Notes under the pieces: model-generated
The model's database searches: none
What the model saw: the letters and a program-made list of their open reading frames with translations, nothing else
What the model was told of the DNA's origin: nothing
From: Candidatus Latescibacterota bacterium
GTDB lineage: Bacteria; Latescibacterota; UBA2968; GCA-2709665
Assembly: GCA_965237675.1 (NCBI GenBank)
Contig: OZ250150.1
Coordinates: 4,640,001-4,704,000 of the forward strand
Reading direction: 5' to 3'
DNA length: 64,000 bases
Program-made: the position numbers and the translations under genes
Part shown: positions 1-64,000 of the stretch, piece by piece
How positions within the stretch are numbered: the stretch's first letter is position 1
How the letters are laid out: each line of letters opens with the position of its first letter

Positions 1-528
1 ATCCAAGAGAAATACACACCGCTCGGGCAATATGCGGTTCGCAAATTCGCCCCTACCCGGTCCCGGCGGTATGCGCTCCGTCTCCTCGAAACCCCGCCGG
101 CGGAGAAGCCGTACGGACCGCTGGTTCGACACGACGCATGTGGCTTCAATCTCATCCAGCCACAGATCCTCAAACCCGAGCTCAAGCAGGGCTCGAACAG
201 CCTCCGTTGCGAAACCGCGCCCCCAGTATACGGGTGACAATTCGTAACCACGGTCGCCTCGCCGGCTACCGGTATTGTCTGTCCGTACCCCGCAGTCCCC
301 CAATAATGCTCCGCTCGACCGGTCTGTGATCGCCAACTGAAATCTGCATCTCGGCTCTTCCCGTGACCACCCGATGCACATGTCGACAAAGCGTTTACAC
401 TCCACCCGCCTATACGCCGGCCGGTAGTAGAATTCCAGGTATCTCGGGTCCTTCCTGAATTCCGCAATGGCGTCCACATCCTGTGGTTTAAGCTCCCGCA
501 GGCGCAGCCGTTCAGTTAGTTTTTCCAT
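1..528 (-). CDS. GNAT N-acetyltransferase, RimJ/RimL type (3' end runs off the window)
   Basis: Not in the ORF track. Manual translation from ATG 528 gives MEKLTERLRLREL...GYELSPVYWGRGFATEAV...SNQRSVRLL, open to base 1. Confidence 0.85.
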   Translation of the reverse strand, partial: MEKLTERLRLRELKPQDVDAIAEFRKDPRYLEFYYRPAYRRVECKRFVDMCIGWSREEPRCRFQLAITDRSSGALLGDCGVRTDNTGSRRGDRGYELSPVYWGRGFATEAVRALLELGFEDLWLDEIEATCVVSNQRSVRLLRRRGFEETERIPPGPGRGEFANRILPERCVFLLD

Positions 529-553
529 CCCAGGGAACCCATTTGCGAATTTC

Positions 554-577
554 CACTAACGTGAGTCCGGCTTGCGA
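554..577 (-). repeat. attC-like half site (core plus L-box-like motif)
   Basis: CACTAAC-gtgagt-CCGGCTTGCGA, about 25 bp upstream of the GNAT start. The same motif recurs across the window. Confidence 0.55.
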
Positions 578-660
578 CCCCGCGCAGTCGGAGTACCGAA
601 TGGCAGGAGGCCCGGGAACGCCGTAATGCGAAGCCGATGTCGCTCTTCGAGGAGATCCAA

Positions 661-1188
661 TCAACGATCGGTCTGATACGAATAAACCACACCCGCGTCA
701 GAGAAAACCGTAGATAGTTCGGGCACCGAGTCGACGGTGATGAGTTGAATGCACCATCTCCGCAAGATCTCAGGCATTGAATACGATTCCGAACGGATGG
801 CTTCGACCGGATCTCTCGAGATGTATTCATTGCTGGGCGTCTTCGTGAAATGGCGATCCTCGAAAACATAGACATTGGCCTCAAACTCCATGATCTGCCT
901 CTCATCCTCCCTATTCACGAAGATGTAACACCTCTTGCACGGGTCGGTCTCTATCCCCAGGTTCAAGAGTTGGCGCCTGGATACTCTAGAGTTTCTGACT
1001 CTTATTCGATGTATCTTTGGGAAAAGGTGAATTGAAATCTCTTCGAAGTCGCCGGCATAGAGCAGGCTGTCCGAAATGTAGCCTGGTTTTGGCCTTGTAC
1101 TGCTGCTCCGAAAATCCTGAGTGCGATAAAATTCCGCTGGATTGAACACCTTTGTCTTCCGTGGAGCAGTTACTTTGTATAAACGCAT
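661..1188 (-). CDS. hypothetical protein (175 aa)
   Basis: ATG-started ORF with protein-like composition, same orientation as the array. Confidence 0.7.
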   Translation of the reverse strand: MRLYKVTAPRKTKVFNPAEFYRTQDFRSSSTRPKPGYISDSLLYAGDFEEISIHLFPKIHRIRVRNSRVSRRQLLNLGIETDPCKRCYIFVNREDERQIMEFEANVYVFEDRHFTKTPSNEYISRDPVEAIRSESYSMPEILRRWCIQLITVDSVPELSTVFSDAGVVYSYQTDR

Positions 1189-1376
1189 TGTGTCGACACC
1201 TGCCTTGCAGCAGAATCAAGCCGATTGCGATCGATCAACGGCCAGCAGGAATACGCCGATATATTCCATTATTTCATATATTTGCCGGGCCCGGATTTTG
1301 AACTGTACTCCTGGCAATGCGTATGATACAAGGTTCAGCAGGCAAGACAAGCCTTCAGAGCCTGTGGAACCTCACT

Positions 1377-4141: not shown

Positions 4142-4424
4142 AGACTTCAATATAACAAAATCGCTACAAAACCACTATTCTTCGTAATTCCAATTGCGGA
4201 AACGGGCTTAAAACGGGCAAATGTGCAAAACATGGGTTCCTGCGGGCATTGTTTCGACTGCCCTGTGGCGGACATGGTATAGAACTTGAAACACGGACCG
4301 GGATTGTATAGCTTGATACCAGACCAGTTTGGTTTTGTCGAAACGCCCGCGTTTCGCTACCCATGAGGTAGAAGTTCCACCACCCTCGAACGTCCCCTAT
4401 TCCCTTGCCCTTTTTCGAGAGGCC

Positions 4425-4640
4425 GGGAGAGGGAAGAGGGGAGACGGTAGAAGTGAGAAAATCGGGTAGAGGGTAGAGGGAAGACGTAAGAGGAGTTGGT
4501 AACTTTATCACATGGCAAGTCACTAATCGGATTCACGCGATATTCAAAAAGAAGTGGATTGCGAAGGTGAGCAAGAAACCGGTGGGGTGCGGTGTGGTCC
4601 TCTTACGTCTTACGTCTCCCGTCTCCCCTCTTACCACTCT
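4425..4640. repeat. two inverted arrays of 7-bp degenerate repeats
   Basis: G-rich heptamers (GGTAGAG/GGAAGAC/GTAAGAG) at 4425-4494 and complementary heptamers (TCTTACG/TCTCCCG) at 4598-4640; perfect 14-bp inverted repeat 4481-4494 / 4598-4611. Confidence 0.7.
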
Positions 4641-4659
4641 TAATCTAGAGAAACTTCCT

Positions 4660-5932
4660 ATGGATACCCTTCCGCTATCTGCACGTCCCGATCTCGCAAA
4701 TTACGTGAAACGGGCGGAAGAACTCGTTGAGGTAGCCGGATCCGAGGAATCCAACCCCGTACACGATTGGTGCAACGAGTGTCTTGACGAGATTGTCCGT
4801 CTCTCCGGACCCGACCTGACGGAATTTGTACAGGGCAGCTATCAGCGCGCCATCGGAGAAGTCGAAAAGGGCGCCCGTGAGATGTCCGCGAAGGCAGGCG
4901 AGGGTGGCCGCGGGTTTGCGCTTTCCGACGCGCAATTTCTCATTGCGCGGGCCCACAGTTTCGAGAGTTGGAACGCGTTTGCCGCACACGTCGACCTGGC
5001 CTCACGCGAGACTGCCGAAGGGGCTGAGTTCGAGGTCGCGGCCGATGCGGTGGTCGACGGGAATCTCCCGAAACTCGAGTCGCTCCTGCGGCGGAAACCG
5101 GCGTTGGCGCACGCCCACTCCGGTCGAATGCACCAGGCGACGCTGCTGTATTACCTCGCCGCCAACGGCGTGGAAGACTTTCGCCAGCGGTCGCCCGCCA
5201 ATGCGCCCGAGATCGCGCCTTCTGCTGGACGCAGGTGCCGTGGTGGATGCCATCTGCGGACCCGGTCAATCCGGAGACACGCCGATGTTGGCGTTGGTGA
5301 CCAGTGTTCATCCACACCTTCGCGGCGTCGCGACCGAACTGATCGAGATATTTGTCAAGGCGGGTTCCAAAGTGGACGGACTAAACGGGGACGGCGCACC
5401 GGTACGTCTGGCCCTCAAGTTCGGATATCCCGAGTCGGCAGCCACCCTGGTACGGCTCGGCGCGGAGGTGAAAACCGTCGTGATGGCCGCCGGTGTGGGC
5501 AGGCTGGACCTGACGAGGGAATTCGTCGAAGACCGTGGCGCATCTAAGGCCGACCTCGCGGAGGCGTTTGAGCTTGCCTGTCGGTTCGGACGGACGGATG
5601 CGGCAGCGTACCTGCTGGCGCAGGGGGCCGACGTGGATGGGCGCGGCGCCTGGAATATGACAGGGCTGATGTGGGCCGCAGGCCAGGGACATCTCGACAC
5701 CATGGCCATGATTTTCGATCACGGCCCCGCACTCGAATTGAGGAACGAGTTTGGAGGCACGTCGATGGGCACCGCCCTGCATTTTGCGACCAACGCGCCA
5801 AACCCGGTGGCCGACTATCCGACCGTGATCGACCTGCTCCTGAACGCGGGATTGAAATTCGAAGGATCCAGGAAAGGAACTGGTGTCGCGAATCTGGATA
5901 CCGTGCTTCGCATACACGGACGGATCGGCTAG
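4660..5932 (+). pseudogene. ankyrin-repeat protein, frameshifted near 5215
   Basis: N-terminal LSARPDL...DAQFLIARAHSFESW in one frame; ankyrin repeats (LLLDAGA, GLMWAAGQGHLD) in another. GAGATCGCGCCTTCTG is repaired by adding 2 nt (GC) to give EIARLLLD. Confidence 0.85.
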
Positions 5933-5968
5933 ACCCGCAATCCGTCCAAAGGCATCATCGGAAGAAAA

Positions 5969-6520
5969 TCAAGGCGTAGCCAGGACGGCTGCGCTTTTCT
6001 GTTGGCGAACGCGATTCGCAAAACCGGGTATTGTTTGCCGATCTGAGCACCGCTGGCTCGGCCGCTGAGCCTGAACCCTGAGCCAGTTGCCCCTAAGGCC
6101 TGAACTGAGCCGCCCCCTGAGCCTGTCGAAGGGTCGGCGAAGGGTGTTGAAGCGCGGCGAGCGGTTGCCGAATGCCAGAGCACCAACGGCCCACAGCGAA
6201 ATCCGCTCTGTTAAGGGAAGTTTACTCTTTCTGCGTGATTCCATTGACTCCAAAAGCAAGTCGATCTTGTCGTCATAGTTGGCGACAAGCTTTGGAAGCG
6301 CCCGGAAATCGGCCAAGAAAAAATCGAAACGATCGATCAAAGATCCGTCCTCACCGGCTCCGCCATGACGCCAGGTTTCTTCATCGGACGCCTCCACAGA
6401 CAGATGAAAGAACCAGCAGTCCTGTAGCTCATCGGTACCGCAATACCACATATCGCGGGTATCCTGGTCCAGGAACCGCTCATAGGTACGAGAAATAGGA
6501 ATCGTGCCTCCCGGTTCCAT
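5969..6520 (-). CDS. hypothetical protein; C-terminal ~80 codons are probably read-through into repeats
   Basis: AGGAG RBS and ATG. Protein-like sequence to about 6215, then the frame crosses the GTTAAGG core (6210) and the REP cluster. Confidence 0.55.
   Translation of the reverse strand: MEPGGTIPISRTYERFLDQDTRDMWYCGTDELQDCWFFHLSVEASDEETWRHGGAGEDGSLIDRFDFFLADFRALPKLVANYDDKIDLLLESMESRRKSKLPLTERISLWAVGALAFGNRSPRFNTLRRPFDRLRGRLSSGLRGNWLRVQAQRPSQRCSDRQTIPGFANRVRQQKSAAVLATP
6056..6176. repeat. nested REP-like cluster (unit CCCTGAGCNTGTCGAAGGG)
   Basis: Several CTGAGC left halves followed by TCGAAGGG/CGAAGGG right halves; tail GGTTGCCGAATGCC is identical to the 41.2 kb copy. Confidence 0.8.
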
Positions 6521-6609
6521 TTTGTCTCCTTATCGTGCGTCATTCACTTCCATATTTGCCATTTTCACTTTGCAGTTGAATCGAACGTTATCCCGTCAAC
6601 GACCCGACG

Positions 6610-7047
6610 GTGTGGGTGCAAACGGCGGATCAGACGGTCAGCTTCGCAGCCTCCGACATCGCGTCGTCCGGAAGCAACTACATCAATTTCAACCTGTCTT
6701 CTTCCGCAAGCACGCTCCGCGGCGGCATCGTCGCCGGGGACCGCTTCATCCTGGCCCTGACCCGTCCGCCGACACCTGAACCCACGGCGACGCCCGAGCT
6801 TTAGTCCGTGGTCGTCGGGCCTCATTGGTATAACCCGGAGTTTGCAATGCAGGCGACGGACGCGTGCAAGTACGAACCCATGCGCTCTGTGGATGAGGAC
6901 GGTCGGGGCTATGACCTGGAAAACCTGACATCGGACGAGTACTCTCTTACCGTGAGCTCCCGTCGCCTTCCTGACTTTGCGAACGATATGCTTGACAATT
7001 CGCACATAATGCTTTATGCTGAATTAACCACGCCACCACAGGGTTAA
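6610..7047 (+). pseudogene. relic of a larger, possibly extracellular protein
   Basis: ORFs 6610-6804 and 6808-7047 share a frame and are separated by one TAG; PTPEPTATPE linker; no good start. Confidence 0.4.
6992..7020 (+). promoter_or_regulatory. putative sigma70 promoter of the four-gene operon
   Basis: TTGACA (6992-6997), 17-bp spacer, TATGCT (7015-7020), 140 bp upstream of ATG 7160. Confidence 0.55.
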
Positions 7048-7159
7048 ATTGGCTATTTTGATGACGAGGAACAGTGGGATGTTCCGGTCATGGCTGTGTT
7101 TACGCCACCATTGATCATGTCGCTGGTTCGGCAGGTCTTTCAAACCCAGGAAACACGAT

Positions 7160-7960
7160 ATGGACAGTATCGAACAAGCATTTGACAACTCCGAAAATGC
7201 AGCGAAATCAGCCCTCCAATCCGCTACCAACCTGGTGAAGTTGTCCAGACGTCTGCAAAAGGCGGCCAAAGAGGGTAACATCGCTGTAATCAAGAAGTCC
7301 CGAGGCGGATTTAACGACGCCCTGGAGAACCTGACGCAGGTGGTGGCAGACGCTGTCCAATCCTGGCCCTATGGAGATGAAGAAGTGGAAGAATACCTCA
7401 AGGGTGGCTATACTGACGAACTGCGTCGTGCCGCCTCGGAAATGGGCCTGGAAATCCATGAACGGGACAAGCAGTTGATCTCACACCCGTCCACCTTGCG
7501 AATTTTAACCGAGGATGAGGCGGTCCGAATCGACAACAAGAAGATCTCGACCATTAAGCCGTCCTACCTGGTCGATCTGCTGATCGCGAATCAGAGGAAG
7601 CGCAGCCGCTTCTCGGCTAAACGCTTTCTGGAGGCCCTGTACAAAGTGTACTCGGAGCTTGTGAAGGAAGATTCTTCGGACGGACTCATGACGGGCGGCT
7701 CCGGGCGCGTGGTACTTTTGGCCAGAATCTACAGGTTGTTCACGTCTCTGCCGGGCAGTGGACGAGATTATGCTCAAATTGACTTTGCCCGAGACCTTTA
7801 CCAGTTGGAAACAAGCGGAGTCTCTAAGACGACGTCAGGCGCCAGTATATTCTTCCACGCATCCACGGGAACCCGAGGCGCCAGAAACGTCTTCACCTTT
7901 GTCGGGCCACACGGCCAGGACATCAAGTACTACGGCATTCGGTTTACGAGGGACGAGTGA
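7160..7960 (+). CDS. hypothetical protein, first gene of a candidate defence operon
   Basis: 266 aa, helical/coiled-coil-like N-terminus; stop overlaps the next start (GTGATG). Confidence 0.85.
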   Translation: MDSIEQAFDNSENAAKSALQSATNLVKLSRRLQKAAKEGNIAVIKKSRGGFNDALENLTQVVADAVQSWPYGDEEVEEYLKGGYTDELRRAASEMGLEIHERDKQLISHPSTLRILTEDEAVRIDNKKISTIKPSYLVDLLIANQRKRSRFSAKRFLEALYKVYSELVKEDSSDGLMTGGSGRVVLLARIYRLFTSLPGSGRDYAQIDFARDLYQLETSGVSKTTSGASIFFHASTGTRGARNVFTFVGPHGQDIKYYGIRFTRDE

Positions 7961-8928
7961 TGCACAACACAATCTCCATCTCGCTCAAAGGCTGGCTGCA
8001 GGTCATTGATGAAGAGTACCTTTCGTCGTTCGTCCGAGACGGCGGCGCGTCGATCAAGTTCGCAGTGCCATCAAACGAGGGCTCCAGGGCTGGTTTGTAC
8101 GCAAAAATGGAGGCTAGTTGCCATGAGTTGGACTATCTTTTCATTAAGCTGAACGCAAAGACGATGCGGGCGCACATGCCGCAGGACTTCTTCTTCATGA
8201 TTGCCAGGCAAGTCGATTGGCGGCGGCTGGCACGCCGTATGATCCTGAAGCTGGCCAACGAGAAGGGCTACCGGATTGAGGGAATATGTCCCGGCGTGGA
8301 CGGCAACGTCTTCGACGCCATCGCGACAGTCAACGGTCTCGAATCGGAGTTCGTTCTCGGAAACCTGAGGCCGATGATACAGAACACTGTCTTCAAGAAC
8401 ACGAAGATGGCGAGAGATTTCCGGGTGTGTATGAGCCATCTTTGCATGGAAGAAAACAGTATTGGCGGGTACATGGGCGAGCCGCTATTGGAGTGGCTGA
8501 CGGGCGAGAACACGCGGATTAGCGGCGTCCGGCCCTTTTCCATCTACACCAGTATCAATCGTAACACGGCCAGATACTTCATCGAATCGGCCCTCTACTG
8601 GATTCATCATGTGGGGCACTCCGGAACTGTAGTATTGTTTGACAACGCACGCGTAACGGTGGCTAGAAATCCGAAGGACGATCTGCGCTACTACACCAGA
8701 GCCATGGCGATGGAACACTACGAGTTACTGCGGGAATTTATCGACGGCGTTGACCGGTTGACGAGCACGGTACTGGTGGTCGTAACCAACAACGATTTCC
8801 TCGACGACAGTGGCGATCGCAGGTCCCGAGGCTACGGGATATATGAGGCCCTGCGCACCCGGGTGATGGACGATGTTCGCGATAGGAACAGGGTCAATCC
8901 GGTCGCATCCCTGGTGCGGCTGACATAG
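7957..8928 (+). CDS. DUF2791/BrxD-like P-loop-fold protein with degenerate Walker A/B
   Basis: GGASIKFAV at the strand that precedes the P-loop but no GxxxxGK[ST]; GHSGTVVLFDN at the Walker B position; C-terminal GIYEALRTRV resembles BrxD-family ends. Confidence 0.7.
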   Translation: MMHNTISISLKGWLQVIDEEYLSSFVRDGGASIKFAVPSNEGSRAGLYAKMEASCHELDYLFIKLNAKTMRAHMPQDFFFMIARQVDWRRLARRMILKLANEKGYRIEGICPGVDGNVFDAIATVNGLESEFVLGNLRPMIQNTVFKNTKMARDFRVCMSHLCMEENSIGGYMGEPLLEWLTGENTRISGVRPFSIYTSINRNTARYFIESALYWIHHVGHSGTVVLFDNARVTVARNPKDDLRYYTRAMAMEHYELLREFIDGVDRLTSTVLVVVTNNDFLDDSGDRRSRGYGIYEALRTRVMDDVRDRNRVNPVASLVRLT

Positions 8929-8942
8929 GAAGGTGGAAGGCA

Positions 8943-10211
8943 GTGGCAGTTTGCGCCGATAAACACAAATTCGCCTCCAGGCGAGCCCTGGAGGCTCTCC
9001 GAAACGGCGTACCCAACAGGGACGCAGTGAAGATATTGGGCTGCAACCAGCCTGAGGCTGAAGATCAGTTCGAAGGCATGTTGACCGGGGCTACGGAAGG
9101 CGTCGACCTTTCGTCCGGCACTTTGGGGATCCTGGTCTCAGGCGATTTCGGCTCCGGCAAGTCTCACCTGCTTACTCACCTGGAAGATCGGGCTCTTTCC
9201 CAGGGTTTCGTTTGTAGCAAGGTGACCATCAGCAAGGAGACGCCGCTATACGACCTGGGCAAGGTCTTCAAGTCGGCCGTGGATAACGCCCAGATGCCTG
9301 GCCGTACCGGCCGGTTGATGGAGGAACTGGGACAGGCGTTGAAGCCAGATTCACAAGAATACGCCGGCTTCTTTAAGTGGGCAAACGATACGGGGTCTAA
9401 CGGGCTGAGCCAGATGTTCCCCGCCAGTCTGCTCGTTCACGAACGGGCGGGCGACCTCGAGCTGAACAACGAGATAGAGAACTTCTGGGCGGGCGACAGA
9501 ATCTACATTTCCCGGGTCAAGAATGGCCTCAGGCAGATAGGGCAAAAGCAGAGTTACTCCTTCCGAGCGCCCAGGGTCGCCGACCTGCCGCCCCAGCGTC
9601 TCCGTTTCGCCGTCCAGCTGATCAAGGCTGCTGGTTACAAGGGTTGGGTGGTGCTGCTGGACGAGATCGAACTCGTCGGTTCGTACTCTCTCCTGCAGCG
9701 GGGAAGGTCTTACGCCGAGCTGGCTCGCTGGCTGGGACAGGCCGGCAGCGGGTCCTATCCCGGGCTGAGAACCGTGGGATCCGTCACCAACGATTTTGCT
9801 TCCGCAATCATCACGGATGGAAAAAAAGACCGCGACTACGTGGTACCAAAGTTGGATAGTACGGATCGTTACGAAAGTTTGAAGGCAGACGCCGATACCG
9901 GTATGAGATTGCTCGTGCGAGGATGTTTGCCGTTGAATCAACCAACAGACGCGGACGTTCAATTGACCATGGAGAATCTACGGAGACTCTACACCGACGC
10001 CTACGGCTGGGATGCTCCGCCGGTACCAATTAGGGCCGGCGGCGCCGGGTATCAGAACCGGATGCGCTACAAGGTCCGCGCCGCCATCAATGAATGGGAT
10101 TTGATGCGGCGCTATCCTGACTACCAGCCCAATACTGAGGGCGAGGAGTTCCGACACCCCTATGCAGAGAACGCCGACCTCGAACGAGAGTCCCGGGACG
10201 ACACTGATTAA
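8943..10211 (+). CDS. DUF2791/BrxD-like AAA+ ATPase
   Basis: RRALEALRNGVP N-terminus, Walker A GDFGSGKS, ISKETPL, Walker B GYKGWVVLLDEIE. Confidence 0.85.
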   Translation: MAVCADKHKFASRRALEALRNGVPNRDAVKILGCNQPEAEDQFEGMLTGATEGVDLSSGTLGILVSGDFGSGKSHLLTHLEDRALSQGFVCSKVTISKETPLYDLGKVFKSAVDNAQMPGRTGRLMEELGQALKPDSQEYAGFFKWANDTGSNGLSQMFPASLLVHERAGDLELNNEIENFWAGDRIYISRVKNGLRQIGQKQSYSFRAPRVADLPPQRLRFAVQLIKAAGYKGWVVLLDEIELVGSYSLLQRGRSYAELARWLGQAGSGSYPGLRTVGSVTNDFASAIITDGKKDRDYVVPKLDSTDRYESLKADADTGMRLLVRGCLPLNQPTDADVQLTMENLRRLYTDAYGWDAPPVPIRAGGAGYQNRMRYKVRAAINEWDLMRRYPDYQPNTEGEEFRHPYAENADLERESRDDTD

Positions 10212-10246
10212 AATGCGACCATTTCTCCTTCCTGGGGGAAACTGAA

Positions 10247-12379: not shown

Positions 12380-12632
12380 AGTAGAGATGGGGCGCAGCGT
12401 GATTCGAGCCGTGACCGAAAAGCGCGAGACGCAGACGCAAACCTTCCGCGTGTTTGCAGTTCCGTGGCAGGCAATCCACACGTGTCTGCGCCTTGCTGTG
12501 CCGATCTCGCGATGGCACACAGTGTGATGCTCAACCCTGCCCTTCGGCCAACGCCCTTTTTGCTGTCGTATTATCTACCAATAGACGATATAACGCGATT
12601 CACAAACCCTCGAGCCAAAAGGAGATCTCACA

Positions 12633-12836
12633 TTGCAGGCTCCAACACCGCAAGACAAACTGGCCGAATTTGACGCCCGTTCGTCGCGGATCGAGGGGAT
12701 TGTTGAGCAGATGGATGCACGCTTGAACAGCCTCCAGCAAGGCCAACGTGATATTTTGTCCTGGATTCGATGGCTTTTAGGAATCCAGATTACAAGCTTG
12801 ATCACGCTTGGCACGCTCATTTTGATCAAGCTTTGA
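12633..12836 (+). CDS. small coiled-coil protein with C-terminal TM helix
   Basis: AGGAG RBS; heptad-like N-terminus and hydrophobic WIRWLLGIQITSLITLGTLILIKL. Confidence 0.65.
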   Translation: MQAPTPQDKLAEFDARSSRIEGIVEQMDARLNSLQQGQRDILSWIRWLLGIQITSLITLGTLILIKL

Positions 12837-13129: not shown

Positions 13130-13168
13130 TGTGAAAAGATATGCAAATGACAACCACGGGAGTACGCA

Positions 13169-54035: not shown

Positions 54036-54860
54036 CTAACCGAAGTGTTCTTCCAGCCATGCGACCGCAAAATCGGCCAGATCCGTCGCGTCGAACAGAT
54101 ACGAATCTGCGGCTCCAACCCGCCCCTCCGAGAAGCGTCCACGAGCCATATATGCTTTCGAGATGCACTGGAAATAGCTGCCATCGGGCCAGTCGGCGAT
54201 TCCTCCTGAAGTATCAAACTGCTCGAACGCTATCCATTCGCACTTGCCGTCGCGCAAGACCGGCCATCGATAGCGCTCAGTTCTCTTGTTGGGCACGTCA
54301 GCGATATGCTCTGCGTAGTGAAGAATGGTCAGGCTGTCGAACAGCGGTCCGAGCAGAAGTACTTTCCCCCCAACGTCGCACAGCTTCTCGAGGGGGGAAT
54401 CTACGCCGTAACCAAACTGAAGCGGATGATCTGACGTTAGCCATTCCGCCCTCGCGCCAACTGCCGCCACTCTTGCCTCGGGATGGTTGCTGCAATGCAC
54501 CCCGGGCCATGTGCGAAGGTACTCTGTAAGGATACTCCACCGACGATTGGCGCGAGTCCGGTACGGGTCAAACGGCGGGCACTCTGCCAGATAGGCTTTC
54601 TGCCAGTCCTCCGGCCAATCATCGATTTCGTTCAACGGTTCCTCACACTTAATGTACATCATCAAAGTCCCAGTTGAACCGAGCACGTCAAGGATCGACC
54701 GTAGCACCACGTTAGGCCCCCCGACGATCCAGCCGACCGCCTTGACGGAGGCATGCAGCATCACCGTGTCGCCAGAGGCAAGCCCCAGTTTCGACAAGTC
54801 GGATACCAAGCTGCTTCGTGTGATCACCGGCAGATTTGTGTTGGCCACGCTGTATGCCAC
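54036..54860 (-). CDS. aac(3): aminoglycoside 3-N-acetyltransferase family, copy 2
   Basis: Collinear with and highly similar to 48401-49213. Confidence 0.92.
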   Translation of the reverse strand: MAYSVANTNLPVITRSSLVSDLSKLGLASGDTVMLHASVKAVGWIVGGPNVVLRSILDVLGSTGTLMMYIKCEEPLNEIDDWPEDWQKAYLAECPPFDPYRTRANRRWSILTEYLRTWPGVHCSNHPEARVAAVGARAEWLTSDHPLQFGYGVDSPLEKLCDVGGKVLLLGPLFDSLTILHYAEHIADVPNKRTERYRWPVLRDGKCEWIAFEQFDTSGGIADWPDGSYFQCISKAYMARGRFSEGRVGAADSYLFDATDLADFAVAWLEEHFG

Positions 54861-54886
54861 CCTAGTCAGGGAAGAATATGCATTGC

Positions 54887-54956
54887 AGTTAACTTTCTCC
54901 GGTTCGCGAACGGAAATTTTAATTGTCGTTGAACTAAAAATTAGTTGACGTTAGTC
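54887..54956 (-). repeat. attC-like site (70 bp)
   Basis: AGTTAAC-tttct-CCGGTTCGCGAA ... GTTAGTC, between two co-oriented genes. Confidence 0.65.
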
Positions 54957-54978
54957 ACTGGAGACCGATCAATGGGTT

Positions 54979-55450: not shown

Positions 55451-55622
55451 TGCAATTCGAATCGATAATTATGTGCTGTCGTCCAACTTTCCCGCGGGCT
55501 GCGAACCTGGCACAGGCAGGTTAGGTCGGAGGCCCAAATGGTCCGGAGCCAGCAATTGTGTATTGTGCGCTGTGCCAACCTGGAGCGGTTCAGGACGCAA
55601 GAATCAGACGAATTCCGATATG

Positions 55623-56339: not shown

Positions 56340-56364
56340 GTATAACGTCCTACCAGTTTGCGAA
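56340..56364 (-). repeat. attC-like half site
   Basis: GTATAAC-gtccta-CCAGTTTGCGAA. Confidence 0.6.
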
Positions 56365-56482
56365 CGGGTCCAGCGAACTGCGGCAGTCGAGATCGGGACT
56401 ACCGCAACGTCGCCGGCAAACGGGCTTTAGTGAGGTGACAAAGGCGTGAACTGAGAGAAAATAGCCCGTGGTATGATGAAAA

Positions 56483-58295: not shown

Positions 58296-59077
58296 CAAGG
58301 TTGAATCCTAGAATTTAAGTGGGATCTGCGGTGCATTTAGCCTGAATAATTCACAAAAAAGGTAGTTTCCATACCCAAGTCATTGTATTATATTATGGTT
58401 ACGCAAATAACCTAATAACAATGAAACAGGAGGAAACTACCGTGGGAGTTCAAGATAAACATCACAGGTTGTCTTTCGCAAGTCTTTCTGGTAGGCAGGT
58501 AGAAGCCACGTTCGACGGGGGCGTGCTGACGACCGACGTCGGGGTGATGCTGCTTCGTGAGGTCGAGGCCAATGTCGGCATTTTGCATCGGATGGTTGCG
58601 GCGCTCACCGATCATCGACATCAAAGTTACGTACATCATTCGATGATGGACCTGATCAAACAACGTGTCTTTCAGATGGCCTGTGGGTATGAGGATGCGA
58701 ATGATTGCAAGACGTTACGCGAGGACCCCGGCTTCAAGGCGGCCTGTGATCGGTTGCCGTTGTCTGGCGCGGACCTGGCCAGTCAGCCCACGATGAGTCG
58801 GTTCGAGAACCGCATCAGCAGAACCGATTTGTATCGGATCGCCAAGGCCTTTGCGGATGTGTTTGTCGCCTCGTATGAGGAACCGCCGGAAGCCATTCTG
58901 TTGGACATCGATGACACCGAAGACAAGGTGCATGGGTCTCAACAGTTGTCGTTGTTCAATGCGTATTTCAATGGCTATTGCTACCAGCCCCTGCATATCT
59001 ATGAAGGCCAAACCGGCAAGTTGATCACGACGGTCTTGCGTCCTGGCAGGCGGCCTGCGGGTAAAGAGATCGTCACC

Positions 59078-60502
59078 GGGATTGTGCCTATCTTAGTTGA
59101 AATAGAAGAGGCTCCGATGTAAATTGGATACGGCAGTCTCGACGAAGAAGACCGTATCCTCAACCAAAGGAGCCTGTGATGAAAAAAGTACCGTCGAACC
59201 TCCGTGAAGTCAAGTCGAATAGGGATGCCGGGGTGACGTCTGGCGCCTTCCTGGGAGAAGCCCTGGAGGATGTTGACGTCCGTGTGGCATTGATCCAAGC
59301 GCTGATCCCGCTTGGTCTGGACGCTGTGGCAGAAATCTTGCAGCAAGAGGTTGCCGGGTTGACGGGCAAGAAACACAGTCGTAAAGCGGGCAAGACCCCG
59401 AATCGTCGGTGGGGCGCTCAACCGGGATCGGTGTATCTGTCGGATCAAAAAGTGCCCATTACGGTGCCCAGGGTGCGTGACGTGGAAGCCAATGAGGAAG
59501 TTCCTCTGGAGGTATATCACCACTTGCAGCGACCCAGAAACATGGACGGAGGGTTGCTGCTGCGCGTGGTCAGCGGCATTGCGACGCGTTCTTACGCCAG
59601 TTGCGCAGAGGCGATACCCGAGGCGTTTGGCTTGTCTTCATCGAGTGTCTCGAGGCGGTTCATCAGGGCATCGGCGGCCAAGCTGAGACAGTTTCAAGAA
59701 CGGTTTCTTTCGGGCTATGACCTGGTGGGGCTGTTTATGGATGGCAAGACCTTTGCCGATCAGGAAATGATCATCGCCCTTGGCGTGACCATCGACGGGC
59801 ACAAGATCCCGCTGGGGTTCGTGCAGGCCGCCAGCGAAAATGAGCGCGTGTGCCGCCAGTTTGTCGATTCGCTCATCGATCGCGGATTGCAGTATCACCA
59901 AGGGCTGCTTTGCCTCATCGACGGCTCAAAGGGCTTGTATAGTGCCCTCACAAAAGCCCTTTCCGGTTATGTCGCCATTCAACGCTGTCAGTGGCACAAA
60001 CGGGAGAACGTGATCGCCTATTTGCCCAAGACACAGCAGAGTGAGGTCAAGAAAGCGCTTCAAAGTGCCTACGACATGGACACCTACAAAGAAGCCAAAG
60101 CCGCGCTGTATGCCCTCAAGCCCTCCCTGACCCTGATGAATGCATCGGCCCTCAACAGCCTGGAGGAAGGGCTCGAAGAAACCCTCACCCTCCATCGCCT
60201 GGGACTGATGCCACAACTCAAGCAATCGTTTCGCACCACCAACTGCATCGAATCCCTCAACGCCATGATCGCACAGCGCACCCGTAATGTGAAACGATGG
60301 AACAACTCCGATCAGCGATATCGGTGGTTGGCAGCCGCGCTGTTGGATATCGAGCCCCGATTGCGGAGGATCAAAGGATACCGCTTTCTTCCCGTACTCA
60401 GACTTGCCCTACGCAATCATCTCGCGCTCGATCATGACACGCAAAACGCTTTCGCCGCTGATTGAACGCCTCTGCTATTTCAACTAATAATAGTACTTGC
60501 CC
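59078..60502 (+). mobile_element. IS256-family insertion sequence (1425 bp)
   Basis: 8-bp target duplication TCGTCACC (59070-59077, 60503-60510); 28-bp imperfect inverted repeats GGG...TTAGTTGAAATAG. Confidence 0.95.
59176..60465 (+). CDS. IS256-family (mutator) transposase
   Basis: VPRVRD, FMDG, IDGSKGL, QRCQWHK, RTTNCIESLN. Confidence 0.95.
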   Translation: MMKKVPSNLREVKSNRDAGVTSGAFLGEALEDVDVRVALIQALIPLGLDAVAEILQQEVAGLTGKKHSRKAGKTPNRRWGAQPGSVYLSDQKVPITVPRVRDVEANEEVPLEVYHHLQRPRNMDGGLLLRVVSGIATRSYASCAEAIPEAFGLSSSSVSRRFIRASAAKLRQFQERFLSGYDLVGLFMDGKTFADQEMIIALGVTIDGHKIPLGFVQAASENERVCRQFVDSLIDRGLQYHQGLLCLIDGSKGLYSALTKALSGYVAIQRCQWHKRENVIAYLPKTQQSEVKKALQSAYDMDTYKEAKAALYALKPSLTLMNASALNSLEEGLEETLTLHRLGLMPQLKQSFRTTNCIESLNAMIAQRTRNVKRWNNSDQRYRWLAAALLDIEPRLRRIKGYRFLPVLRLALRNHLALDHDTQNAFAAD

Positions 60503-61561
60503 TCGTCACCATCCTCAAACGGGTGATCGCCTACCTGCGTAAAGCCTGGCCCGACGTGGAGATCCTGTTACGTGGCGATGCGCATTTTTCGTGTCCGGAA
60601 GTGCACGTGTTGTGTGAGGAAGAAGATGTGTATTTTGTCCTCGGACAGAACGGCAACGCCAAACTCCTGCGGAAGGCACAGTCCTTGATAGACCAGGCCA
60701 AAACGCGGTATGCCGATTCCGGAGAAACCGTGCGCCTTTATCGCTGTTGGGCCTATCAGGCCGGCACCTGGGCGTGTCCACAACGCATCGTCTGCAAGGC
60801 GGAAGTGACACCGCAAGGTGTCAATATCCGATTCGTGGTCACCAACCTGAAGCGCGCCCAACCGTCATTCATCTACAAAACCGCCTATTGCACACGCGGC
60901 AGGATGGAAAACTTCATCAAAAATCACAAGACCTTTCTCCATTCCGATCGCACCTCTTGTCACACCTTCCAGGCCAATCACTTCCGTCTCTTTCTCCACA
61001 GCGCCGCCTATGTCCTGATGCACAGCCTGGCTGCAATCGGATTGCGCGGCACGAAGTGGACCAACGCACAGTTCAATACCCTGCAAAATCGTCTCTTGAA
61101 AGTCGCCGGGCGCGTTTGTGAGTTGAAAACTAAAATCAAGTTCCATCTGCCAACGGCGTTTCCACTCAAACACCTTTATGGCAAGATCCTCTATAATCTG
61201 GCAACGGGTGTTCCATAACCCATCGACGTGCTGACCCCGCCTTCACATTTGCATCGACCACCACCAAAGGTCATGGAGAAGTCTGTGCGCTTGACACGGG
61301 CATCGAGGTCAACCTGACGTCACGAGGCAAAGCAGGCGCCGCCCAAACGGCTTGAACACGCCAAATCCGTCACAGCCCATGCGCTTTCGTTTCTTGTCTC
61401 ACTCGGAAGCTCTTTCTGCTTCCTTAAAATGCTCTATCTGACGATTCATGAATTAATCGGGCTAGCATAACATATCCGCCGGTTAAGTACCCGCCAAAGC
61501 ATGGCGTAGGTGAGTTGGTCTCAGACCACGGCCCGCAAACGACGCCGCCCAAGAGGACATT

Positions 61562-62035
61562 TCATGTTGCGGTCCCAGCGTTGGGGTAGTTGGGCTTAAG
61601 CTTCAACTCCGTGAAGTACGGAGTAAACCCAAGTTTTGACCAGAAAGACTGGCCCCGCGGGTTCGTTGAAACGACGTCGAGCGCCATTTCAAAACCTTCC
61701 GGAAAACGCTCTCGCGCAAGCATCGCGAAGGCCATTGTTCCAAGACCTCGCCCTCGGTGATGTCTCTCTATGTAGAATTGACGAAGATAAACAACTGTCT
61801 GGTCTTCGTCGTAGTAATCAGATCTTTGCTTATACACCGCGTAGCCAGCAATGCTGTTCGATTCCAGAAACACGTCAATCTGCCATTCGCCAGACTTCAG
61901 CCACGCCTTGAAGCGATCCTCCAGATCGGAAACTGAAAATGGATTCTCGCTACCTTGGTCTTCAACCAGCCGATCGTTCATCTGCGCCAGGAGATGAAGG
62001 TCGTCGGGAATGGCGGTTCTGAGCTTGATCGGCAT
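61562..62035 (-). CDS. GNAT N-acetyltransferase
   Basis: QFYIERHHRGRGLG, NPRGQSFWSKLGF. Confidence 0.9.
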   Translation of the reverse strand: MPIKLRTAIPDDLHLLAQMNDRLVEDQGSENPFSVSDLEDRFKAWLKSGEWQIDVFLESNSIAGYAVYKQRSDYYDEDQTVVYLRQFYIERHHRGRGLGTMAFAMLARERFPEGFEMALDVVSTNPRGQSFWSKLGFTPYFTELKLKPNYPNAGTAT

Positions 62036-62092
62036 TGTGGAAGCCTCTTATGTATCGGTCATGCGTTGATGCGACTTTCACGAAGCGAATGG

Positions 62093-62923
62093 TCAGGGCT
62101 GTCGACCATCGACGTCTCTAAATCCGTACTCTCGGGCCAAGTCGGGGACCTCCAGATATGGTTTCACGTCGACCTTGCTCATCACCTCCGCGTCCCCAGC
62201 CAAAGCTGCGATTGCCCTGCCCGAGTATAACGGTGTAAACGTCTTCTCCAGGTCCTCAGGTTTGGTGTTCTCATCGGGTTCCCATGTTCGCATGTATTGG
62301 TGTTCGTCGCCAAGCGACAGCAGGACAACTGCTATCCCGTTTTCTCGGCATTCCTCTGCCATTCCATGCGTCATTCTATATATCGCGGACTTGAACGTAT
62401 CATAGAACAGATTTGGGTGGAACTTGCTGTCCGGATTGATCCCACTGGTGGTGTTGACAATCAAACCGTGTCCCTGCTCCAGCATGATCGAAATTGCGCC
62501 CCGTGCAGCCGTCATATGGGATCTCAACCCGGCTCCGTACATGAGTTCCCACTGCCTCATTGGTAGTTCCCAGAATCGTTTTCGCCCCCAGAATCCATCG
62601 CCCATCTCGTAGCCGCCCCAGGCGTTGTTCACGAGCACATCCAGCCGACCTTGTTCTTTCTTTACTTGACTGAAGAGTCCTTCAACCTGCTCATCTTTCG
62701 TGTGATCTACCCGGACAGGAATCCCCTCGCCGCCCCGTTGAGTCACCGTTTCGGCCGTGTCTTCTATGGTTTCGCCCGGGATGTCCTTAGTCTGGTTCCC
62801 GCGGATGCTGCGTCCCGTCACATATACAATCGCGCCGGCCTCGCCAAGCGCGGTGGCAATGCCCTTCCCCCCACCGCGGCTTGCTCCAGTCACCACGGCT
62901 ACTCTGTTTGCCAAAGTCTTCAT
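62093..62923 (-). CDS. short-chain dehydrogenase/reductase (SDR)
   Basis: VTGASRGGGKG, LVNNAWGG, YDTFK (YxxxK). Confidence 0.92.
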   Translation of the reverse strand: MKTLANRVAVVTGASRGGGKGIATALGEAGAIVYVTGRSIRGNQTKDIPGETIEDTAETVTQRGGEGIPVRVDHTKDEQVEGLFSQVKKEQGRLDVLVNNAWGGYEMGDGFWGRKRFWELPMRQWELMYGAGLRSHMTAARGAISIMLEQGHGLIVNTTSGINPDSKFHPNLFYDTFKSAIYRMTHGMAEECRENGIAVVLLSLGDEHQYMRTWEPDENTKPEDLEKTFTPLYSGRAIAALAGDAEVMSKVDVKPYLEVPDLAREYGFRDVDGRQP

Positions 62924-63117
62924 CTTTCGGATTCCCTGTCCCCTGGTTGTACTGACGCATAACGATCAACTTTGCGGAAGCGGATCTGTCGGGGTCAATC
63001 TGTCATCCGCCGTTTTGGGACCCGTGAAGCATATCCGCCGCGAGAACCAGGTAGAATGCGGCCTGCAGCAATTTGCCGTCTGAACAAACAGTTTGACAGG
63101 AAATGGTCGCGGCAGAC

Positions 63118-64000
63118 TCAGGCGCGCAGGCGCTCGAGGCATTCCTCATAAGCTTCAAAGCGCTCGCCTTCGCGCTCCTCGGGATCGACCTTCTTGAGGA
63201 ACAACGCGCTGCCCGGCTTCCTGCCGGTAAACTCACGGTGGCTCTTGATATGTGCCGGATCCTCACCGCTCCACTTAACCTCGCCATCCTGCAGATACAC
63301 AAAGTTCCCCCGGTGTTCCTCGATCATCGCTTGCATGCGATCGCGATAGAAGAGTCCCTGCTCACAAGCCGTTTCCCTTACCGTGGCCATGATTTCAGGC
63401 GGATCTTCCTCGTCAGAGTCAAATTCGTTCAATGGACCCCCGACTTCACTCTTGAAGTCAATTTCGTCGAGATTGACGGTTCCGAATCCGCTCTGCGCGG
63501 CGACGAGGAGATGGTTGCGGTCGCGTCGGAATGGTGGCGCAGGCCAATCGGACGCGGGATCGTGCCCCATCAGGCTGGCGCCGACGGCATCGGTGGCTAT
63601 GATCTGGTCGCCCGCGATAAGGGTGTTGCACACGCGGCCCTCGCCGCCCCACTCACGTCCCCATTGACCGGTCGTGGCGTCGACGATATTGAGACACGGG
63701 TTGGTAATGCGCGCCAGATCGGGCAGCACGTAGGACAGCCGGATTGCGTGGTGGAAATAGGTGCGCACCCGACCCTCCGGCGGGATCGTAGGCGTGAGGC
63801 CGAACAGGTTCTTGGTACAAAGTGTGACTCCCATGAAGAGGTGGTTCTTCATCTTGGCGACGGAAACGACCTCGTCCGCTTCGCTGAAGCACCGGCTGAG
63901 CGTGTAGCGCTGAAACATGCAACCGCCTCCCGGCACGTCATACTCGGCGAACGGGGGCAGATTTGACTCCACGTACTCGACGTCGAATTCCTCGAGCAGC
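63118..64000 (-). CDS. DUF362 family protein (5' end outside the window)
   Basis: SVAKMKNH, GVTLCTKNLFG, LNIVDA, IATDAVGASLMG; the frame is open to the window edge. Confidence 0.85.
   Translation of the reverse strand, partial: LLEEFDVEYVESNLPPFAEYDVPGGGCMFQRYTLSRCFSEADEVVSVAKMKNHLFMGVTLCTKNLFGLTPTIPPEGRVRTYFHHAIRLSYVLPDLARITNPCLNIVDATTGQWGREWGGEGRVCNTLIAGDQIIATDAVGASLMGHDPASDWPAPPFRRDRNHLLVAAQSGFGTVNLDEIDFKSEVGGPLNEFDSDEEDPPEIMATVRETACEQGLFYRDRMQAMIEEHRGNFVYLQDGEVKWSGEDPAHIKSHREFTGRKPGSALFLKKVDPEEREGERFEAYEECLERLRA

Follow-up and report, generated by a model that had tools for sequence, protein, structure and literature searches.

A probable sedentary integron-type cassette array with an eroded distal part in a Latescibacterota genome and the IntI-like recombinase at its head

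On contig OZ250150.1 (C1) of a Candidatus Latescibacterota bacterium, a stretch of 64,000 nucleotides (positions 4,640,001 to 4,704,000, here called the window) carries genes mainly on the minus strand, with one plus-strand motif recurring in the gaps between them. The question raised by this locus is whether these genes once were cassettes of an integron-type array, and which recombinase may have assembled it. A preliminary description, made from the sequence alone, had counted about 60 co-oriented genes, in agreement with 60 of the 73 ORFs of at least 60 aa being located on the minus strand. This bias also runs into the core flank at 4.763-4.80 Mb, so that co-orientation alone is little proof. 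The cassette-type cargo was found as described, with 5 GNAT, 4 VOC, 6 SAM-methyltransferase, and 3 NUDIX genes by Pfam among the 73 window ORFs, further 2 APH, 2 AAC(3), 1 ANT(2''), Fic/Doc, and HicB; 19 of the 73 had no Pfam match. Such cargo is present in the window and in both flanks alike.

Read as its reverse complement, the recurring motif is the L'-spacer-R' end of an attC-type hairpin, which in gene direction, the minus strand of the window, has the layout TAAC..L''..L'..GTTA and a length of 70-155 nt. With up to one mismatch, CCGGTYTGCGAA occurs 11 times in the window, 10 times on the plus strand, compared with 0.75 matches on average and no more than 3 in any of 100 shuffles. The whole contig contains 89 matches on the plus and 52 on the minus strand; when sorted into 50-kb bins, 10 are at 4.65-4.70 Mb and at most 4 in every other bin. 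The motif noticed in the preliminary description is real. The 17 positions originally listed for the motif were of mixed quality. The box is present with up to 2 mismatches at 12 of them and with 3 at one, while the other four (6580, 28165, 42035, and 49252) contain at least 4 mismatches. An AAC at the proposed spacing is found at 10 of the 17 positions and not at the rest. Eight positions (554, 6580, 24691, 24730, 32801, 33477, 54887, and 55481) are the low-coordinate end of a match to the covariance model R2 with an E value of up to 5, and two more (30493 and 41130) adjoin one. Four of the six strongest window sites, 18923-19003, 29299-29444, 36645-36725, and 45611-45691, were absent from this list.

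The consensus of the sites is C-NNN-TAAC-ACGT-CCGTGCCCGG...CGGGCACGG-CGAAAAC-GTTA-NNN-G; a search of the window against Rfam yielded no match. In an alignment of 11 hand-picked sites (A2), 89.7% of the cells pair versus 81.0% in shuffles, pairing falls to 23-42% of the cells when the partners are slid, and 9 of 23 pairs are compensatory. An alignment of 35 sites fitted to the covariance model (A3) gave 89.5% versus 72.5%, with 20 of 23 pairs compensatory. Compensatory changes in the inner L''/L' stem concern all nine pairs in A3 and 5 of 9 in A2, and the R''/R' core boxes TAAC/GTTA form a standard pair in 93% of the cells of 34 distinct sites. The folded bottom strands show an R stem and an L stem with a 4-nt bulge between them. 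The bulge is on the R'-L' arm in most folds, and three of ten seeds have a single unpaired base on the opposite arm; neither of the two canonical extrahelical bases was recognised as such in these folds. Sequence and pairing support the assignment of the sites to a true attC-type family of predicted recombination substrates.

R2, trained like the other covariance models on sites of the same genome being searched, gave 38 matches with E values of up to 1 in the 5.6-Mb genome. Thirty of them are within C1:4,608,795-4,753,066, all on the minus strand, and the other eight form three small clusters, each on one strand; no match at this cut-off was found outside the four clusters in the whole genome. 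Within 45 kb beyond the right end of the window, there are 27 sites with E values of up to 0.01, all on the minus strand, none of the 27 inside a gene, and placed directly after genes, one per cassette. One or two ORFs lie between most neighbouring sites, and where the distance is larger, IS copies are present. This right flank is a textbook cassette array. For its 73 ORFs, the window has just 6 clear sites, about 5 weak ones, and some half-site relics, which are listed here with other features:

1 to 64000, minus strand: distal eroded part of the probable cassette array, with cassette-type cargo, collinear with 5 congeners
553 to 648, minus strand: decayed site (nhmmer E 0.0018; R2 E 3.2)
5201 to 12376, plus strand: opposite-strand island with an ankyrin gene, two BrxC/D-like ATPase ORFs, and a SNF2 helicase gene
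6579 to 6670, minus strand: weak site (R2 E 0.83)
17432 to 17443, plus strand: half-site relic, exact L' box without adjoining GTT or AAC core
18923 to 19003, minus strand: attC-type site downstream of an ANT(2'')-like gene (R2 47.3 bits, E 5e-10)
24690 to 24870, minus strand: weak or compound site, two tandem L'-R' ends and a GC-rich tandem-repeat insert (R2 E 0.29)
29299 to 29444, minus strand: attC-type site, long variant (R2 21.9 bits, E 0.0032)
32675 to 32740, minus strand: weak attC-type site (R2 E 0.081)
32800 to 32939, minus strand: long attC-type site, R'' GACTAAC to R' GTTG (R2 E 1.3)
33476 to 33573, minus strand: attC-type site, R' mutated from GTT to GAT (R2 18.8 bits, E 0.022; nhmmer E 1.3e-12 as a model seed)
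36645 to 36725, minus strand: attC-type site (R2 34.2 bits, E 1.7e-6)
41130 to 41273, minus strand: weak site with a GC-rich tandem-repeat insert (R2 E 0.71)
42041 to 42130, minus strand: 5' half-site TACAAC-ACGG-TTTGCGCTGCGG with a diverged 3' arm
43463 to 43474, plus strand: half-site relic, exact L' box without adjoining core
45611 to 45691, minus strand: attC-type site (R2 38.6 bits, E 1.1e-7)
54886 to 54957, minus strand: weak, AT-rich attC-type site (R2 E 0.71)
55480 to 55569, minus strand: attC-type site with a deletion in L'' (R2 41.3 bits, E 2.1e-8)
56341 to 56434, minus strand: site with R'' mutated from AAC to AAA (a model seed, matching by construction)
58421 to 61215, plus strand: nested IS, with a DDE_Tnp_1_4 transposase gene interrupted by one of the Mutator family

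Mutated cores, as claimed before, are thus visible in several window sites, for instance at 33476-33573. The sequences that had been interpreted as mirror arms represent R'' boxes, which read TAAC on the minus strand; the one at 42111 is a clear 5' half-site. The cores at 32801-32939 had been thought to overlap a stop codon; the R'' box there is about 47 nt past the stop of ORF 32988-33413, not on it. A site with an E value below 0.05 is present in only 6 of the roughly 60 gene gaps of the window, so that a cassette origin of all its genes is an extrapolation. In successive 60-kb stretches moving from the head of the array, 27, 5, and 1 sites have E values of up to 0.01, and the site score decreases with distance from the head (Spearman rho -0.53, p 4e-4, n = 41). 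This fall in density and score agrees with site decay. CALIN are defined by at least two attC sites at most 4 kb apart and no integron integrase nearby; with the model built here, such clusters exist throughout the right flank and also in the window, e.g., 33476 and 36645. The definition of a sedentary chromosomal integron, which asks for over 19 attC sites or one and the same locus throughout the species or genus, applies as well, given 30 sites in one region and synteny of the locus across 5 congeners.

Five congeneric species are collinear with the window, and aligned blocks span 23,128-41,793 of its 64,000 bases at a mean identity of 81.6-91.2%; the core flank is 79-93% identical to the same five genomes. 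The divergence of the window is about equal to that of the flanking core DNA. With 65 genes tried per genome, the median dN/dS of the window genes was 0.16-0.21 across the five comparisons, and 36 of 38, 33 of 35, 34 of 36, 39 of 42, and 42 of 44 comparable genes had values below 0.5. The window genes are under purifying selection. Collinearity, core-like divergence, and purifying selection therefore mark this part of the array as old, "domesticated", and passed on vertically. The comparison of gene order that had been suggested earlier found the order to be fixed in the five congeners, which makes the window a fossil and not an active array. Orthologous sites exist for 18923 in G008, for 36645 in G012, and for 45611 in both, and site 32800 has a weak ortholog in G008. 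The syntenic regions of relatives are equally sparse, with 22 matches at E values of up to 1 in 319 kb. The opposite-strand island is 87-96% identical in G012, G008, G010, and G014. Proximal cassettes, in contrast, are 93-100% identical with those of species in which core identity is just 79-84%, and in G002 these cassettes are arranged in a different order. Base-by-base inspection of one indel, window 27590-30678 versus G012 and G008, placed the breakpoints in or beside attC sequence, not at the canonical G/TT.

The window is quite probably the distal and oldest part of a sedentary integron-type array that covers at least C1:4,608,795-4,753,066 (about 145 kb), with genes and sites on the minus strand. 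Site family, clustering, a single strand, and the density gradient bear out the large sedentary array or CALIN with decayed sites that was proposed initially. Each cassette would comprise one ORF and one attC-type hairpin, added at the head beside the IntI-like recombinase, with older cassettes being pushed progressively away. Point mutation, deletion, and repeat insertion would have destroyed most hairpins in the window, leaving its cassettes no longer excisable. Retained by selection, the genes would now be inherited vertically like ordinary chromosomal genes. This history builds on demonstrated features, the site family and its structure, clustering, strand, gradient, synteny, and purifying selection; insertion at the head and decay with age would give the order of events, and recombination may have been performed by the head recombinase or an ancestor of its now truncated copy.

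In agreement with the preliminary description, no integrase gene is present in the window, and no protein of the genome reaches the cut-off of the integron-integrase model, so that CALIN or sedentary array is the right class. An intI gene had been anticipated beyond the right end. An IntI-like tyrosine recombinase is indeed encoded 54 kb to the right of the window (C1:4,757,838-4,758,836), co-oriented with the cassettes, although it is not a canonical IntI. It scores 214 bits against TIGR02249 (cut-off 265), below the level required for the intI of a complete integron, and 218.6 bits against NF040815 (threshold 220), for which its full-length relatives reach 225.4 and 225.1 bits, above the threshold. 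The IntI-specific insertion is missing: 27 query residues are opposite 69 residues of IntI4 (171-239), and the same gap appears in the alignment to the canonical IntI of relative G017. The catalytic R-H-R-Y region is conserved. The best solved relative is VchIntIA/IntI4 by sequence (PDB 2a3v, E 2.8e-43) and IntI4 by fold (Foldseek E 1.5e-15), followed by the archaeal XerA (5hxy). The head gene is truncated in this genome and lacks its N-terminal domain; it is frameshifted in G012, and only fragments are left in G008, G002, and G014. The head is rearranged in this genome, with a duplicated gene fragment, a gene for a glycosyl hydrolase, and an IS separating the recombinase from the first site.

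Relatives of this recombinase in other phyla provide the most novel lead, a pattern of recombinase-headed arrays. In 80 loci that contain relatives of the recombinase, a model-free attC pattern gave 77 sites downstream and 7 upstream on the strand of the recombinase gene, versus 8 and 6, respectively, on the other strand; 19 of 20 R2 matches at recombinase-relative loci were downstream on the same strand. Regular cassettes directly follow the gene in Desulfitobacterium sp. Sab5 (12), an Ignavibacteriota MAG (9), and a Bacillota MAG (6), and none of five genomes with such arrays encodes a canonical IntI. Full-length members of the family possess an extra N-terminal domain of about 100 aa that is not in IntI and occurs in 20 of 27 array loci versus none of 7 IS91-linked loci. 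It belongs to the fold class of structure-specific DNA-binding domains (HARP, the UvsW N-terminal domain, and the XPB DRD), and it is tempting to speculate that it recognises the folded attC site in place of the missing insertion. With about even chances, the array represents a second, unrecognised kind of integron, defined by an insertion-less IntI-like recombinase with this domain that is co-directional with its cassettes. Such elements would span phyla including Bacillota, and standard tools would label them CALIN. To our knowledge, integrons are held to be nearly absent from Bacillota.

The region including the window may alternatively be a working integron, with the IntI-like head or an in-trans recombinase still excising and shuffling window cassettes via degenerate sites. 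This is unlikely, since five species share the gene order of the window, which diverges from them to a core-like extent, most window gaps lack a recognisable site, the head gene is truncated here, frameshifted in G012, and fragmented in G008, G002, and G014, and the breakpoints of the examined indel are not at G/TT; it would nevertheless explain proximal cassettes that are 93-100% identical between species and rearranged in G002, cassette-size indels within the window between congeners, and contigs of 3 runs from one study showing a variant without window 35441-37957. Just 6 clear sites for 73 ORFs, a fixed order, purifying selection, core-like divergence, and a strand bias common to the neighbouring core genes could also describe an ordinary accessory-gene island that never was a cassette array and into which a few sites strayed by secondary-site insertion from the true array on its right. 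Half-site relics in further gaps, an L' box 15-fold over chance and strand-specific, and weak R2 matches on the minus rather than the plus strand (10 versus 4) make this very unlikely, as do a cargo spectrum matching that of the intact array, the contiguity of the window with this array along a smooth gradient without a step, and a strong site even further out at 4,608,795.

It is highly improbable that IS91-type rolling-circle elements, composed of a tyrosine recombinase and a Y2 transposase, built or multiplied the arrays instead of integron-style recombination. No Y2 homologue was found in this genome by tblastn with the G020 Y2 protein (E values of up to 1e-3), Y2 follows the recombinase in only 7 of 43 loci with enough downstream sequence, none of these 7 being an array locus, and the N-terminal domain of array-heading recombinases is missing from 7 of 7 Y2-linked ones. 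In favour of this alternative are the 6 near-identical recombinase-Y2 units in G020, 5 of them beside attC clusters, and the 3 units in G017, 2 beside IntI genes. It is hardly credible that the repeats have nothing to do with site-specific recombination and represent a generic family of intergenic repeats or terminators (REP-like): they are GC-rich hairpins downstream of genes, and other dispersed repeats share their spacers, but all 38 matches fall into four clusters with one strand each, the conserved TAAC/GTTA boxes are part of an asymmetric attC-like architecture, and the same architecture follows IntI-like recombinases in other phyla.

Read as the distal part of a sedentary array, the window is a clear, datable example of the fate of the far end of a very large array: sites erode, and captured genes stay under selection and turn into ordinary chromosomal genes. 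An integron can thereby supply a genus with lasting gene gain. Homologues of aminoglycoside-modifying enzymes are part of the cargo in an apparently environmental organism.

The locus resembles, as far as these are described, the Vibrio super-integrons and Xanthomonas arrays in being a large array at one chromosomal position that is maintained throughout a genus. The intI gene of the Xanthomonas arrays is reportedly inactivated. Shared with sedentary chromosomal integrons are a lineage-specific homogeneous attC family, one ORF per cassette, GNAT, VOC, methyltransferase, NUDIX, and toxin-antitoxin cargo, embedded IS, and a decaying integrase; unlike in these, the head recombinase has no IntI-specific domain and is co-oriented with the cassettes, and most sites of a long distal stretch are lost while its genes are kept under selection. 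IS91 subgroups with an upstream tyrosine recombinase exist. Relatives in G020 and G017 that are 46-51% identical to the head recombinase resemble these IS91/ISCR elements, have a Y2_Tnp/Zn_Tnp_IS91 transposase gene directly after them, and adjoin arrays; unlike an IS91-family element, the locus described here has no Y2 gene, and there is none in this genome. The Planctomycetes-type attC sites (Ghaly et al. 2021, PMC8352920), too, are described as a taxon-specific family captured by a covariance model.

Integrons with more than 19 attC sites are classed as sedentary by Cury 2016 (PMC4889954), where CALIN reach 114 sites, most without a recognisable intI pseudogene nearby. As in CALIN, the genome has clusters of at least two sites and no protein at the integron-integrase cut-off; unlike in CALIN, an insertion-less IntI-like recombinase is positioned at the head here, in relatives, and in other phyla, and the label "lacking an integrase" may therefore hide the real enzyme. 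If the family of the head recombinase is indeed what recombines the cassettes, many CALIN would be complete elements, and integron-like systems would exist in phyla thought to lack them. The head recombinase resembles VchIntIA/IntI4 and XerA in sequence, fold, and catalytic region and differs from IntI4 by the missing insertion and, in full-length relatives, by the added N-terminal domain. Should this family be the cassette recombinase, an attC-based cassette system could do without the IntI-specific domain, and experiments could draw on natural intermediates between Xer-type recombinases and IntI.

The repeated motif on which the preliminary description had based an eroding, integron-like cassette array was enriched in the window. 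The sequence CCGGTYTGCGAA, with at most one mismatch, gave 11 matches there, 10 of them on the plus strand, compared to a mean of 0.75 and a maximum of 3 in 100 shuffles. In the whole source genome (5.61 Mb, 3 contigs), 89 matches were on the plus strand, with 10 in the 50-kb bin from 4.65 to 4.70 Mb, the densest one, and no more than 4 in any other bin. On the gene strand, this motif reads TTCGCARACCGG-N5/6-GTT and corresponds to an inner L' box, a spacer, and an outer R' box of a hairpin site. The 17 positions named for the motif held in part: 12 of them possess the box with at most two mismatches and 8 were matches of a covariance model, while 4 were poor. As a genome-wide search pattern, the L' box with two mismatches was noise (896 matches on the minus versus 828 on the plus strand, not clustered).

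The full site can be written as C-NNN-TAAC-ACGT-[L'' stem]...[L' stem]-CGAAAAC-GTTA-NNN-G and is 70 to 155 nt long. Folding of the bottom strands of clean sites, which had been proposed as a check, yielded the hairpin, with an R stem of 5 to 8 bp, a 4-nt bulge on the R'-L' arm, a long L stem, and two inner hairpins. The longer spacer is on the R' side in classical attC sites and likewise on the gene-direction strand of these sites, which makes the gene strand the "top" strand. With a hand-written structure for 11 sites, 89.7% of the cells paired, compared to 81.0% after shuffling and 23 to 42% with slid partners, and 9 of the 23 pairs showed compensatory change. For 35 sites collected by the model, these values were 20 of 23 pairs and 89.5% versus 72.5% after shuffling, although they lean toward the structure because the alignment was fitted to the model. 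When 22 sites were aligned plainly with MAFFT, the subfamilies fell out of register and RNAalifold therefore predicted 0 pairs; the 11-site subset and the hand-written structure replaced this approach. A strict generic AAC..GTT hairpin finder, which brought the first clean sites to light, gave 114 and 107 genome-wide matches, about the chance level, and no clear enrichment. An Rfam search of the window at gathering thresholds gave 0 matches.

The covariance model R2, built from the sites of the source genome itself, found 38 sites in this genome at E ≤ 1. Thirty of these, all on the minus strand, were located within 4,608,795-4,753,066 of contig C1, on which the window occupies 4,640,001-4,704,000. 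The remainder of the genome contained no site at this threshold outside of three small clusters, and a recombinase homologue was absent near all three:

1,405,617-1,412,292, minus strand, 5 sites
1,148,317-1,150,377 (near 1.149 Mb), plus strand, 2 sites
1,651,363-1,651,447, minus strand, 1 site

To the right of the window, 27 R2 sites at E ≤ 0.01 (filters off) were found within 60 kb, all on the minus strand and all intergenic. The intervals between them mostly comprise one or two ORFs, and larger intervals hold IS copies. In the window, 6 sites were found at E < 0.05 and 5 at E 0.05 to 1, all on the minus strand, plus weaker matches at E 1 to 5 (5 minus, 4 plus). To the left of the window, a single strong site was found in 56 kb, yet the cargo there is still cassette-like. 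Going outward from the head, which is the array end to the right of the window with a gene for an IntI-like recombinase, the number of sites at E ≤ 0.01 per 60 kb was 27, 5, and 1, and the site score dropped with the distance from the head (Spearman rho −0.53, p 4e-4, n = 41).

Many gaps between the window genes contain half-sites or damaged sites, and GC-rich tandem repeats with units of the type ..CTGAGC..GTCGAAGGG.. are present in the loops of some attC-type sites:

17432 and 43463, exact L' boxes without a core
33476 and 56341, sites with mutated cores
55480, site with an L'' deletion
24690-24870, tandem 3' ends
24787-24845, 30549-30635, and 41198-41273, GC-rich tandem repeats in site loops

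A long site variant of 140 to 155 nt that carries a GC-rich loop insert of this type is frequent in the proximal array and in the related genome G020.

The minus strand carries 60 of the 73 window ORFs of at least 60 aa, the size floor of the crude codon-usage gene call used. According to Pfam, the cargo is of the cassette type, with 5 GNAT proteins, 4 VOC/glyoxalase proteins, 6 SAM-methyltransferases, and 3 NUDIX proteins, followed by 2 APH-like proteins, 2 paralogues of the AAC(3) family, and 1 ANT(2'')-like protein. Fic/Doc, HicB, metallophosphoesterases, and ankyrin proteins are also encoded, and 19 of the 73 ORFs had no Pfam match. The run of minus-strand genes is broken by an island, a nested IS, and a few small or doubtful ORFs. 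The island, the nested IS, and further features of the window are as follows:

5201-12376, plus strand, opposite-strand module of an ankyrin gene, two BrxC/D-like ATPase ORFs, and a SNF2-family helicase gene, 87 to 96% identical in four congeners
58421-61215, plus strand, DDE_Tnp_1_4 IS interrupted by a Mutator-family IS
19022-19549, ANT(2'')-like gene
23478-24395 and 26234-26776, two APH-like genes
48404-49333 and 54039-54860, minus strand, two paralogues of the AAC(3) family with 86% identity over 300 nt
27013-27158, 4335-4416, 6097-6157, 31515-31868, and 42131-42292, short dispersed repeats of about 40 to 350 nt in spacers

The module at 5201-12376 may be a defence-type system. Homologues of aminoglycoside-modifying enzymes of the AAC(3), ANT(2''), and APH types are among the fossil cassettes of a chromosomal array. 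The spacer repeats occur in dozens of copies with 80 to 98% identity, scattered in the genomes of all five congeners, and look like MITEs or other intergenic repeats separate from the attC family. The array has several copies of one DDE_Tnp_1_4 IS, at 58421-61215 in the window, at positions 4186-5547 and 12574-13935 of the extracted locus L010, and at 9236-10597 of L011. In the proximal array, PhyH with its site and a DUF4160/DUF2442 pair are duplicated, and these duplicated cassettes suggest a rearrangement of the proximal array by IS.

The comparison with related genomes revealed the state of the window. The site family was found in 28 of 40 related genomes (E ≤ 1e-3), including 13 of the 14 within the genus, with 0 to 69 sites per genome. 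The window was collinear with five congeneric species, apart from gene-sized indels. In these, 40,669, 41,793, 23,128, 24,601, and 25,524 of the 64,000 bases were aligned, with mean identities of the aligned blocks of 91.2, 90.4, 81.6, 82.3, and 83.1%, respectively. A 20-kb core flank was 79 to 93% identical to the same genomes, indicating that the window diverged like core DNA. The window genes are under purifying selection, with a median dN/dS of 0.16 to 0.21 at a dS of about 0.67 in the three more distant species and a dN/dS below 0.5 in 36 of 38, 33 of 35, and 34 of 36 comparable genes.

A fixed gene order in relatives had been named in the preliminary description as a result that would speak against a cassette array, and such an order was found for the window. 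It is read here as that of a fossil rather than as evidence against an attC identity of the sites. In the relatives, the syntenic regions are equally poor in sites (22 matches at E ≤ 1 in 319 kb), and the window sites at 18923, 36645, 45611, and 32800 have orthologous sites in the congeners G008 and/or G012. The decay is thus mostly older than these species. Compared base by base to G012 and G008, the indel at 27590-30678 has breakpoints in or beside attC sequence and not at G|TT, so that there is no clean integrase signature at this position. A variant without 35441-37957 was visible in contigs of a close relative from three RNA-library runs of one study, which join 35440 directly to 37958; two genes, for a CN-hydrolase and a methyltransferase, plus their spacers are skipped, a presence/absence on the scale of cassettes. 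The metatranscriptome contigs on 30001-40000 were mostly 90 to 99% alike and demonstrate neither transcription in the source genome nor its level, and bins without contig coverage in this stretch are uninformative.

The proximal array differs from the window: its blocks are 93 to 100% identical to those of species with a core of only 79 to 84% identity, and they are in an altered order in the congener G002, which suggests that exchange and shuffling took place recently close to the head. The preliminary observation was largely borne out, and its interpretation as a cassette array with decayed attC-like sites is supported, except that the window is not an active array but a frozen array tail that is inherited vertically.

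No integrase had been seen in the window, and no protein of the whole source genome reached the cutoff of the integron-integrase model (TIGR02249). The best match was a 333-aa ORF at 4,757,838-4,758,836 on the minus strand, with 214 bits compared to the cutoff of 265. Its gene sits between the array and conserved core genes, which encode a family B DNA polymerase and a peptidoglycan-binding protein. Among solved structures, the Vibrio integron integrase 2a3v is closest to the recombinase (E 2.8e-43). Residues 171-239 of 2a3v aligned with only 27 residues of the recombinase, so that the IntI-specific insertion is absent, and an equal gap appeared against a canonical IntI of the related genome G017. 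C-terminal fragments of the recombinase gene are also present:

4,760,291-4,760,566, C-terminal fragment
4,731,920-4,732,168, C-terminal fragment

Full-length relatives possess an additional N-terminal domain of about 100 aa, which is absent in the source genome and out of frame in G012, and the head gene is present only as fragments in the congeners G008, G002, and G014. This shows a decay of the head gene throughout the genus.

In four related genomes (G012, G017, G020, and G038), recombinase relatives are located directly upstream of co-oriented attC clusters, and in G016 the relative is inside an attC cluster on the opposite strand. A scan with one genome per species, leaving out the window's own lineage, gave more than 587 relatives in many phyla. 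In the loci of the best 80 of these (L049-L128), 19 of 20 R2 matches were downstream on the recombinase strand. A model-free pattern (TAAC, 3 to 5 nt, an 8-nt stem in which 7 or 8 positions pair, 6 to 8 nt, GTTA) gave, in the same best 80 loci, 77 downstream sites on the recombinase strand and 8 on the other strand; upstream, the counts were 7 on the recombinase strand and 6 on the other. In the whole source genome, this pattern gave 30 sites, with 15 within attC clusters. An insertion-less IntI-like recombinase plus N-terminal domain was observed at the head of co-oriented attC-type arrays, for instance, in the extracted loci L051:9641-20786, L075:10001-17299, and L050:9680-16138. Such arrays occur in Bacillota, Ignavibacteriota, Nitrospirota, Thermodesulfobacteriota, Spirochaetota, and Bacteroidota. 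In the locus of Desulfitobacterium sp. Sab5, there are 12 regular cassettes, and a co-oriented ORF is present in 11 of these; the loci of an Ignavibacteriota and a Bacillota MAG contain 9 and 6 regular cassettes, respectively. Sites of the recombinase loci fold with the same 4-nt bulge architecture, and a canonical IntI was found in none of the 5 genomes with an array-heading recombinase that were checked.

A shorter version of the recombinase is directly followed by an IS91-type Y2 transposase in G020 and G017. Six such units with a mutual identity of 97.7 to 100% are present in G020 (L019-L024) and three in G017 (L025-L027). They mostly adjoin attC clusters or, in G017, directly follow a canonical IntI gene. 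Of the array loci, 12 of 15 and 8 of 12 had the N-terminal domain, compared to 0 of 7 Y2-linked loci. Full-length members score 225 bits with NF040815 ("site-specific tyrosine recombinase/integron integrase"), above its cutoff of 220, and stay below the cutoff of TIGR02249, and the best match of a predicted full-length structure (mean pLDDT 84) was again 2a3v. The model of the N-terminal domain alone (mean pLDDT 82.5) matched, by VIA, the N-terminal domain of T4 UvsW (Z 7.3, rmsd 1.8 Å over 62 residues), next the XPB damage-recognition domain (Z 6.3) and HARP (Z 4.0). The top Foldseek match was SMARCAL1 HARP (E 0.077, probability 0.95), and Pfam HARP gave a sub-cutoff match in one recombinase member only. 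The predicted resemblance to several structure-specific DNA-binding domains is suggestive but not decisive, and the scores may reflect a shared arrangement only.

With regard to known systems, Cury et al. 2016 (PMC4889954) define CALIN, with arrays of up to 114 sites, and report intI pseudogenes near only 15 of 279 CALIN. Ghaly et al. 2021 (PMC8352920) constructed an attC model specific to Planctomycetes, Néron et al. 2022 (PMC9024848) list one complete integron and "a few CALIN" for the Firmicutes, and in an archaeal-integron preprint the additional domain is taken as a defining feature of IntI. The open full-text literature searched contained no account of insertion-less recombinases heading attC arrays, and prior publication is possible. 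The window by itself belongs to a known kind of element. It is the nature of the head recombinase that sets the element apart as a variant and raises a testable, potentially important question.
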